From Enterobacter phage vB_ECC_MY742, in the sequence record PV593737.1: a stretch of DNA of 64,000 nucleotides; one strand, written 5' to 3'. The position numbers and the translations under genes are program-made. The notes under the pieces were generated by a model that was not told where the DNA came from, did not search any database, and saw only the letters and a program-made list of their open reading frames with translations. Within the stretch, counting starts at the first letter, position 1. Every line of letters starts with the position of its first letter. Shown in pieces: positions 23,753 to 25,120 of the stretch.

Positions 23753-24052
23753 TTAGAAAGAACCTCGGCCTTTGATCGTATTCTGACGACCTTTATTTTC
23801 TAATTCAGAATGGTCGATTTCATACGCTTGGGCAACACCAAAAGCCTTTTTAACTTTAGCTAAAGAGCCTTTAGACGTAACAATATTAAAAGTATTGCCT
23901 TTAGTAAAATCAACCAAATCCACTTGTACGCCTTGTTTGCCAAGGCTTGCTACAATAGCATCAACATATTGCTGGTCCAAAGTACCCTGAACACCAATTT
24001 GGAATGCCTTAGGTGCTTTAGCTTCAGCAATAAACTCTTGATAAGTTTTCAT
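23753..24052 (-). CDS. Internal-protein (IP) family, capsid targeting sequence leader
   Basis: N-terminal MKTYQEFIAEA matches the T4 IPIII/IPII capsid targeting sequence. Confidence 0.75.
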   Translation of the reverse strand: MKTYQEFIAEAKAPKAFQIGVQGTLDQQYVDAIVASLGKQGVQVDLVDFTKGNTFNIVTSKGSLAKVKKAFGVAQAYEIDHSELENKGRQNTIKGRGSF

Positions 24053-24061
24053 TTTTAATCC

Positions 24062-24355
24062 TTATGCAAACGGGTCGTGAAGTTTGTTACCGACTTTACG
24101 GAAGACTTTAGCTGCAAATTTGTTAGTTGGGTTATCAACCATAATTTTACGCATCTGGCTTGTAGCTGCAGTACGAGCTGCTTTATAACCAGCGATATTA
24201 TCTTTGATAGTTACACGTTTGCCACCAGGCCCATCAACGGTTACTTTATATACGCCTTCATCTTCACCTGGTTTGATTTCTTCAATCCAGATATAGCCAC
24301 CCTGGACACGTTGAGCCTGGGCTGTTTCAGTGAGAAACTCTTGATAAGTTTTCAT
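24062..24355 (-). CDS. Internal-protein (IP) family, capsid targeting sequence leader
   Basis: N-terminal MKTYQEFLTE. Confidence 0.75.
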   Translation of the reverse strand: MKTYQEFLTETAQAQRVQGGYIWIEEIKPGEDEGVYKVTVDGPGGKRVTIKDNIAGYKAARTAATSQMRKIMVDNPTNKFAAKVFRKVGNKLHDPFA

Positions 24356-24368
24356 TTTTAATCCTTAA

Positions 24369-24785
24369 TTAGTTGTAGATAGCCTTACCATAATGTTTAT
24401 ACCACTGAGGCCGTTGAGCAATTTTTTCATCCAGACGTGCTTGAGAAATTTTAAGAGCGTCTAGAGTTGGAACATAATCATTGCGGAATTCAACCGGAAT
24501 GTCGCTAATATCCTGAACAGTAGTGTCCTGGATTTTAAAACCACGTTTTAAGCATTCCGCAATTAAGTCGATTTGACGTTTACGCAAGAACTCGAGTTTG
24601 TCATAAAAGAATGTTACATGACCAGTACCTAAAATGAAAACTGAAGAGATTTTAAAATCCTTTAGCTTTTTACCATTTTGAACATGCTTACGAACAGCAC
24701 CGAATACACGAGGTAGTTCACGATATTCAGCCATCAGATGTTGGTCAGCCAGTTCAGATACTAAAGTTAAGTTAATGCGTGTCAT
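24369..24785 (-). CDS. denV: Endonuclease V (pyrimidine-dimer DNA glycosylase)
   Basis: 138 aa, nearly identical to T4 DenV ([34 protein letters not shown]...). Confidence 0.95.
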
Positions 24786-24844
24786 TTTTAATCTCCGTTT
24801 GTTTGGTATGAGAGTATCATAACACGGTCAAACGGAGATGTAAA

Positions 24845-25120
24845 CTACTTCTTAGAATAATCTGCCATTAGTGCAGCAATATCACCAAGTTTCTTACCAA
24901 ACAGATATTCGACTTCATTACCTTTCTTATCTACGATCTGCCATTGGCCTGAACCTTTGTTGCCAAAGGTATAATCGCCAACTTTATAAGAGAAGCCACC
25001 TACTTTTTTAATAGGAGTAAAAGTGAAACCACCTTTCTTAGCCAAAAATTCCATCCGACGCAGATCATCGGCATCTTCGTTCAAAGCCTGTTCGGCAATA
25101 AACTCATTATAAGTTTTCAT
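24845..25120 (-). CDS. Internal-protein (IP) family, capsid targeting sequence leader (start at [10 protein letters not shown])
   Basis: The conserved capsid targeting sequence lies at the internal Met; the longer ORF would overlap gene e. Confidence 0.7.

Follow-up and report, generated by a model that had tools for sequence, protein, structure and literature searches.

RESULTS

What do the small genes around denV and beside 57B of a T4-like Enterobacter phage encode, and why do their products start alike? We analyzed a 64,000-nucleotide stretch of DNA from Enterobacter phage vB_ECC_MY742 (record PV593737.1), referred to below as the window. A sequence-only reading of this stretch had described three genes flanking denV and a fourth next to 57B that encode the same N-terminal leader, had matched the leader to the capsid targeting sequence (CTS) of T4 internal head proteins, and had proposed the four products as injected antidefense factors. 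In a six-frame scan of the window, we recovered the same coordinates and N termini: exactly four open reading frames (ORFs), all on the minus strand, start with MKTY(Q/N)EF(I/L)(A/T)E, and relaxed patterns covering IPI-type leaders found no further ORFs in the window. We refer to the four genes and their products as IPA, IPB, and IPC, at the denV locus, and IPD, at the 57B locus (Table 1). Taking all of the evidence together, we consider it probable that they are packaged and injected T4-type internal head proteins, each of which blocks one host nuclease, and that they are carried in swappable cassettes.

Four genes begin with a predicted capsid targeting sequence

In T4, the first 10 residues of IPIII are enough for head incorporation (PMC9026906, summarizing Mullaney & Black 1996). 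Residues 4 and 7 of the CTS serve targeting, while residues 8 and 10 serve processing by the prohead protease gp21, which cuts after the Glu of L/I-x-E (PMC9026906); gp21 and the gp22 scaffold are encoded by core genes of T4-related phages (PMC9026906). All four leaders in the window keep Tyr4, Phe7, Ile or Leu at position 8, and Glu10, with residues 8 to 10 reading IAE in IPA, IPC, and IPD and LTE in IPB. The leaders of IPA (MKTYQEFIAEA) and IPD (MKTYQEFIAES) are those of T4 IPII and IPIII, MKTYQEFIAE, letter for letter, and the leaders of IPB (MKTYQEFLTET) and IPC are one or two residues off this sequence. Judged by these residues, the leader is a predicted T4 CTS, as the sequence-only reading had put it. 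A second L-N-E is found at residues 13 to 15 in IPC (QALNE, then D) and IPD (SILNE, then D), and may provide an extra gp21 cut site.

The single substitution at residue 5 of the IPC leader, Asn for Gln, is accounted for by the neighboring lysozyme gene e. The two genes share 14 nucleotides (nt; positions 25107 to 25120), the first ones of IPC and the last ones of e, and the TAA that terminates e falls across codons 4 and 5 of IPC, which is why Asn stands at this position. In phage DK-13, e and the IPC homologue do not overlap, and leader residue 5 is Gln. Separately, the IPC homologue of Serratia phage X20 (Winklervirus; protein P0025) has the annotated N terminus MTLLESYLQTYTQPLTESE, in which the leader (QTYTQPLTE) is very different from the others. 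Possible reasons are drift of the CTS in Winklervirus and a miscalled start.

We also asked whether the leaders are alike at the nucleotide level, as had been claimed. The 20-mer quoted in support of this claim turned out to be a consensus and not an exact repeat, since it differs from the four copies by 1, 1, 3, and 1 mismatches. However, nucleotide conservation itself held up: the four matches in the window compare with 0.03 expected, and none of 100 shuffles reached four. Likewise, the same codon is used in 36 of the 45 same-residue pairs among the four leaders, compared to 24.9 expected from the codon usage of the window (simulation P of ~0.007), and three leader copies use the rare codon GAG. 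In IPA and IPB, an identical stretch of 33 nt, TAAGGATTAAAAATGAAAACTTATCAAGAGTTT, covers the ribosome binding site (RBS) and the leader. The T4 genes ipII and ipIII have their own, different identical RBS-plus-leader stretch of ~46 nt (judged by eye). Since the identical stretches are separate here and in T4, the leaders look homogenized within each genome, which points to putative homogenization genome by genome. A scan of IMG/VR with a degenerate leader pattern yielded 12 loci only, too few for a census of the bodies that follow the leader.

The four proteins belong to four families with dissimilar bodies

By profile match and identity, IPA, IPB, and IPD are members of the named families Ip7, Ip10, and Ip9, respectively, and IPC is a member of phrog_8765; the sequence-only reading had not given these existing family names. 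IPA matches phrog_2667 ("internal head protein"; E = 3e-42) and is 97% identical in amino acid sequence to "ip7" of VR20 and 50% identical to "Ip7" of T2 over 98% of its length. IPB matches phrog_3966 (E = 4e-21), which PHROG labels as being of unknown function, and has 53% amino acid identity to the "Ip10 internal head protein" of PP01 and VR20 over 99 to 100% of its length. IPD matches phrog_7673 ("internal head protein"; E = 3e-55) over residues 1 to 90, with 81% amino acid identity to UniRef entry Q38376 ("Ip9, phage RB15") and to "ip9" of VR20 and VR26. IPC matches phrog_8765 ("internal virion protein"; E = 2e-43), a family that carries no Ip number and is present in 42 phage records, with the lysozyme gene adjoining wherever the annotation shows it. 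All three numbered families are present in VR20, where ip7 and ip10 lie close together and ip9 lies ~14 kb away. The Ip7/Ip9/Ip10 series of T-even and RB phages was reportedly described by Repoila et al. in 1994; the host genus differs in our case, being Enterobacter. The RefSeq record of the near-identical Enterobacter phage vB_EclM_CIP9 (CIP9) already lists the products of the 57B-locus gene and of two denV-locus genes as internal head or virion proteins; the third denV-locus gene, the counterpart of IPB, is listed as "hypothetical."

TABLE 1 Coordinates of the four internal protein genes, of associated features in the window, and of Ip9-body homologues elsewhere (aa, amino acids; pI, predicted isoelectric point of the mature form)
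Feature	Position	Strand	Details
IPA, Ip7-family internal head protein gene	23753..24052	minus	99 aa; predicted mature form 89 aa, pI 9.5
IPB, Ip10-family internal protein gene	24062..24355	minus	97 aa; predicted mature form 87 aa, pI 9.8
IPC, internal virion protein gene	24845..25120	minus	91 aa; predicted mature form 81 or 76 aa, pI 9.2
IPD, Ip9-family internal head protein gene	39049..39321	minus	90 aa; predicted mature form 80 or 75 aa, pI 8.9; ipI position, 3' of 57B/Acb1
33-nt repeat, IPA copy	24032..24064	minus	TAAGGATTAAAAATGAAAACTTATCAAGAGTTT; ZX14 homology stops here
33-nt repeat, IPB copy	24335..24367	minus	Same sequence as IPA copy
GC-rich element (49% GC)	23590..23752	minus	Between IPA stop codon and vs.8-like gene; relatives in which the cassette is swapped or absent become homologous again here
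denV (endonuclease V)	24369..24785	minus	ORF between IPC and IPB; named denV in CIP9, ZX14, and IME523
e (lysozyme)	25107..25601	minus	Stop codon within IPC codons 4 and 5
57B/Acb1 anti-CBASS nuclease	39413..39868	minus	Directly upstream of IPD; Pfam PF23474, E = 1.8e-58
Terminator-like hairpin (39395-39414), then early-promoter-like site (39350-39378)	39350..39414	minus	Precedes IPD
Second early-promoter-like site	39017..39045	minus	Directly past IPD stop codon
Ip9-body homologue lacking the leader, locus L024 (phage SHAK7858)	1510-1728		
Ip9-body homologue lacking the leader, locus L010	2504-2749		
Protein with Ip9 body as a C-terminal domain, locus L009 (Kuttervirus pertopsoe)	491-2758		755 aa

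Past the leader, the predicted mature bodies are basic (pI 8.9 to 9.8) and have a mass of ~9 kDa, and we found no similarity that would unite them, in agreement with the earlier description of the bodies as unrelated. When the leaderless bodies were compared with each other by BLASTP, the best pair had an E value of 0.046, and BLASTP of the leaderless bodies against those of T4 IPI, IPII, and IPIII found no similarity. HHalign comparison of leaderless family profiles, including those of the T4 IPI, IPII, and IPIII bodies, gave a probability of at most 1.5% for every pair, and the four proteins fall into four separate PHROG families. A hidden common ancestry of the bodies was rejected on these HHalign values. 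A cross-match of IPC to the Ip10 PHROG family (E = 6e-7, residues 1 to 67) was likewise not upheld when the leaderless bodies were aligned, the HHalign probability again being at most 1.5%.

Searches for known domains and folds were uninformative. A Pfam search with the four proteins returned sub-threshold noise only, and a sequence search of the PDB found no meaningful match for them. The sequence-only reading had proposed structure prediction of the bodies, and IPC and IPD were modeled with AlphaFold2 from shallow alignments of close relatives only. The IPC model (predicted local distance difference test score [pLDDT], 85.9; confident) consists of a five-strand sheet with a helix at each terminus, while the IPD model (pLDDT, 77.7; moderate) is a small alpha/beta domain in which the leader is disordered. 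However, neither model had informative fold neighbors: Foldseek against the PDB gave best E values of 0.16 for IPC and 0.08 for IPD, in both cases to small alpha/beta proteins of a generic kind, and the only BFVD entries that it matched to IPC were from the family of IPC itself. IPI* was not among the 50 top-listed PDB neighbors of either model, its presence in the library being unchecked.

Bodies are exchanged as cassettes at two loci

The window belongs to a phage of the genus Kanagawavirus (Straboviridae, Tevenvirinae), a T4-like group. Its region 23000 to 26200 is 96.2% identical to CIP9 at 99% coverage, and many T4-like phages match it more weakly. On the minus strand, the genes run nudE, e, IPC, denV, IPB, IPA, a GC-rich stretch of 160 nt, and a vs.8-like gene, whereas the T4 order is nudE, e, ipIII, ipII, denV, and vs.8; thus, the internal protein genes are arranged e-IPC-denV-IPB-IPA in the window and e-ipIII-ipII-denV in T4. 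The second locus, ~14 kb off, has gene 1, 57A, 57B, IPD, and small ORFs, in the same order as 1, 57A, 57B, and ipI of T4. The four genes therefore occupy both canonical internal protein loci, between e and denV and 3' of 57B. Extrapolating from the T4 map, we presume that the window does not extend to genes 21 and 22. Nine tRNA genes lie on the minus strand in two clusters (positions 35237 to 37491) between the two loci, as they do in T4.

To ask how these genes differ among relatives, we compared the two loci across T4-like phages. Homology between the window and phage ZX14 is unbroken through the end of IPB, the RBS, and the 33-nt leader stretch of IPA, is lost over the body, and returns at the stop codons, TAATAAAGGCA. 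Between these breakpoints, the window encodes the Ip7-like body and ZX14 encodes a 189-amino-acid IPIII-like protein. This pattern bears out the proposal that the leader serves as a recombination substrate, and the leader marks the recombination breakpoints. Phage IME523 has no IPA gene at all; its gap opens just past the stop codon of IPB and closes at that of IPA.

The 57B locus is similarly variable. Within the genus, it holds one of four cassette sets: Ip9, an IPII-like gene, phrog_31819 alone, or phrog_36925 with phrog_31819. The carriers of Ip9 at this locus are the window, CIP9, and Entb_45, while IME523 has an IPII homologue with the leader MKSYNEFTQLNE, ZX14 has two other internal proteins, and Kosakonia phage 305 has yet another. 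Individual bodies also change position, with Ip7 found on the 57B side in CC31, on the Acb1 side in COW86c, and on the denV side in the window, and IPII found on the denV side in T4 and on the 57B side in IME523. In addition, IPA and the GC-rich element, taken as one block, have 86% identity to Gaprivervirus DK-13, compared to 69% for the adjacent block from denV to nudE, and the GC content of IPD is 28.6%, compared to 39.6% for the window. The breakpoints, the gap in IME523, the varied cassette sets, the roaming bodies, the block identity, and the GC content of IPD together indicate lateral cassette exchange between related phages, in which bodies are swapped, inserted, and lost. A chimera is a further sign of such exchange: a 77-amino-acid metagenome protein (P0031) has an N-terminal half like the Ip7 body and a C-terminal stretch of 35 amino acids that is 77% identical to Ip9, and an Ip7-N/Ip9-C chimera is also found in Escherichia phage OLB35. 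P0031 is apparently a deletion fusion of neighboring ip7 and ip9 genes.

The homology arms differ between the loci. The RBS plus leader forms the upstream arm at the denV locus, and the downstream arm is the stop codon plus the GC-rich element, which serves as a 3' homology arm because homology with relatives resumes there. This element is present in 848 Tevenvirinae phage records and corresponds by homology to the 5' part of the T4 vs.8 coding sequence; in the window it is out of frame, interrupted by a stop codon and a change of frame, and in relatives it has 1-nt indels. The vs.8 gene may be truncated or frameshifted, or the element may have a regulatory role. A structured RNA was rejected as the identity of this element, given a fold z-score of 0.06, no Rfam match, and the homology to T4 vs.8. 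At the 57B locus, the downstream homology arm is formed by promoter repeats. Because early-promoter-like sites are found both before and after IPD (Table 1), the cassette is bracketed by similar promoter sequences, and T4 ipI is likewise bracketed by a direct repeat, ATTTCACAAAGTTGTTTACATA.

This arrangement resembles the published promoter-terminator (PeSL) shuffling of T4-type genomes (PMC2839356, PMC4122927). In contrast, the upstream arm of the denV locus is the coding leader and not a promoter.

The gene directly upstream of IPD had been called 57B, and its Pfam match confirms it as encoding Acb1, the nuclease directed against the cyclic-oligonucleotide-based antiphage signaling system (CBASS). 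T4 57B is Acb1 and adjoins ipI (PMC9117128), and in the window the presence of Acb1 beside IPD makes this an antidefense neighborhood. The 57B/Acb1 protein shows HST and HIT motifs, and "RNA ligase" is the label given to it in RefSeq relatives.

The Ip9 body occurs without the leader outside T4-like phages

We searched for Ip9 homologues by an exhaustive HMMER search and by tblastn. Leader-bearing homologues start with MKFNEFLTE, MKSFKEYLTE, or MKTFQEFLNE. Leaderless homologues of 66 to 81 amino acids, which start ~8 residues past the predicted cleavage site, were found in phages of ~43 to 45 kb. Their carriers include a phage record listed under Guernseyvirinae and a 44.5-kb phage listed under Kayfunavirus. 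In the latter, the gene belongs to a series of small rightward ORFs that diverges from the gene for an excisionase-type regulator, and its product has been given the label "internal head protein." An Ip9 domain is also found near the C terminus of a protein of 755 to 861 amino acids (phrog_3867) in Kuttervirus (Ackermannviridae).

In the leaderless proteins, matches to the PHROG profile run from position 17 to 21 to the end of the profile, and in the Kuttervirus domain they cover positions 16 to 74; thus, the matches of the non-T4-like homologues cover the body only and never the leader. The label "internal head protein" on leaderless copies is probably an over-transfer of annotation. Because the leaderless and domain-fused forms match the body only, they fit a leader that was added as a tag to preexisting small domains. 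We tentatively raise the possibility, which we would not call probable, that the CTS is a portable delivery tag that T4-like phages have grafted onto small effector domains already circulating among phages.

DISCUSSION

Internal proteins of T-even phages are a diverse set of injected proteins that counter host defenses and have only the targeting sequence in common (PMC3012670). Ip1, Ip2, and Ip3 each inhibit one variant of GmrSD, a Type IV restriction system, without cross-protection, and the same role is expected by the authors for the remaining proteins of both loci (PMC12373910). The link between IPI and GmrSD drawn in the sequence-only reading is therefore sound in that Ip1 does inhibit GmrSD, but the role is not IPI's alone. 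It is from this published class that we infer an injected antidefense role for the four proteins of the window.

By analogy with T4, the 10-residue CTS would bind the scaffolding core, and the proteins would thereby be built into the prohead. The gp21 protease would then cut after Glu10 of I/L-x-E, and in IPC and IPD perhaps also after Glu15, and the freed basic proteins of ~9 kDa would remain with the packaged DNA. They would be ejected into the cell with the DNA ahead of any phage gene expression, and each would most likely bind and block one specific host nuclease that attacks modified phage DNA, as may be supposed from T4 Ip1 to Ip3 only.

The proteins of the window resemble T4 IPII and IPIII in location at the e-denV locus (IPA, IPB, and IPC), in being small and basic, and in having an RBS and leader homogenized within the genome, but their bodies have no detectable similarity to those of IPII and IPIII. 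The targets of T4 Ip2 and Ip3 are GmrSD of strains ECOR21 and ECOR17, respectively. IPD resembles T4 IPI in its position 3' of 57B/Acb1 and in the early-promoter repeats on either side, whereas IPI has a longer leader of 19 residues, MKTFKEFTSTTTPVSTITE, and an unrelated body.

Several observations weigh against the explanation that we prefer. No canonical late promoter, TATAAATA, was found near either internal protein locus. Just upstream of e are degenerate copies of the two late-promoter boxes of T4, GATAAATA and TATCAATT, and a near-match to a late promoter precedes IPD (CATAAATA); late synthesis, which is needed for loading into the prohead, would have to come from these near-matches or from read-through. 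The bodies showed no likeness to known anti-restriction proteins, either in sequence searches of all four or in fold searches of IPC and IPD, and a literature search gave no virion proteomics, cleavage data, or phenotype for Ip7, Ip9, or Ip10. Finally, Kanagawaviruses are predicted to carry arabinosylated 5-hydroxycytosine and not glucosylated hydroxymethylcytosine (PMC13326640), so the targets of these proteins may differ from the GmrSD variants studied in Escherichia coli.

The last point bears on an alternative that we regard as unlikely, if worth serious attention, in which packaging and injection take place but the proteins counter defenses other than GmrSD-type Type IV restriction, or have a role in host takeover unrelated to restriction. 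Such a role would be in keeping with a genus that probably has a different cytosine modification, with bodies that have nothing in common with Ip1, Ip2, and Ip3, and with the location of the anti-CBASS gene acb1 next to IPD. The leaderless Ip9 body in the 44.5-kb phage filed under Kayfunavirus also argues against a modification-specific target, since we presume that a phage of this kind lacks hypermodified cytosine. Yet GmrSD-family enzymes are the targets of all three internal proteins for which a target is known, and the authors of that work predict the same for the rest.

Two further alternatives do without a specific host target or without packaging. The proteins could be mainly structural, acting as basic counterions that aid DNA condensation or ejection; all four mature bodies are basic, with the predicted isoelectric points given above, and lysines of T4 internal proteins touch DNA phosphates in the head (PMC3012670). 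However, generic charge leaves unexplained why there are four unrelated folds, why cassettes turn over so fast among close relatives, and why T4 internal proteins have strict one-target specificity, and IME523 manages without the Ip7 gene, all of which makes a purely structural role improbable. Even less credible, and in our judgment very improbable, is that the common N terminus reflects only a shared translation initiation region or common descent and that some of the proteins are never packaged. The nucleotide identity does reach upstream into the RBS, and the loci have no canonical late promoter nearby. Nevertheless, the amino acid conservation spans more than 10 unrelated body families, the conserved residues are exactly those required for targeting and cleavage, and the 10-residue T4 sequence packages foreign proteins on its own (PMC9026906, PMC3012670). 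We therefore favor packaged and injected nuclease inhibitors in swappable cassettes over these alternatives.

The observation that started this analysis is thus correct but ordinary: earlier literature covers the concept, the protein families, and the mechanism of swapping, and the scan alone brings no new biology. The presence of the Ip9 body without the leader in unrelated phages is one minor new point. If the three forms of Ip9 (leader-bearing, leaderless, and domain fused) share one host target, this target would not be specific to the DNA modification of T-even phages, and the leaderless homologues would offer an easy genetic route to Ip9 function. They are a small and possibly useful lead, and they also show how a label can be transferred to proteins that have no packaging tag.

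Because internal proteins act ahead of phage gene expression, they help decide which natural strains are infected by a therapeutic T4-like phage. Ip7, Ip10, Ip9, and the protein encoded next to e are therefore four concrete candidates for host range determinants in Enterobacter, and the clean breakpoints suggest that their cassettes may be swappable by design.

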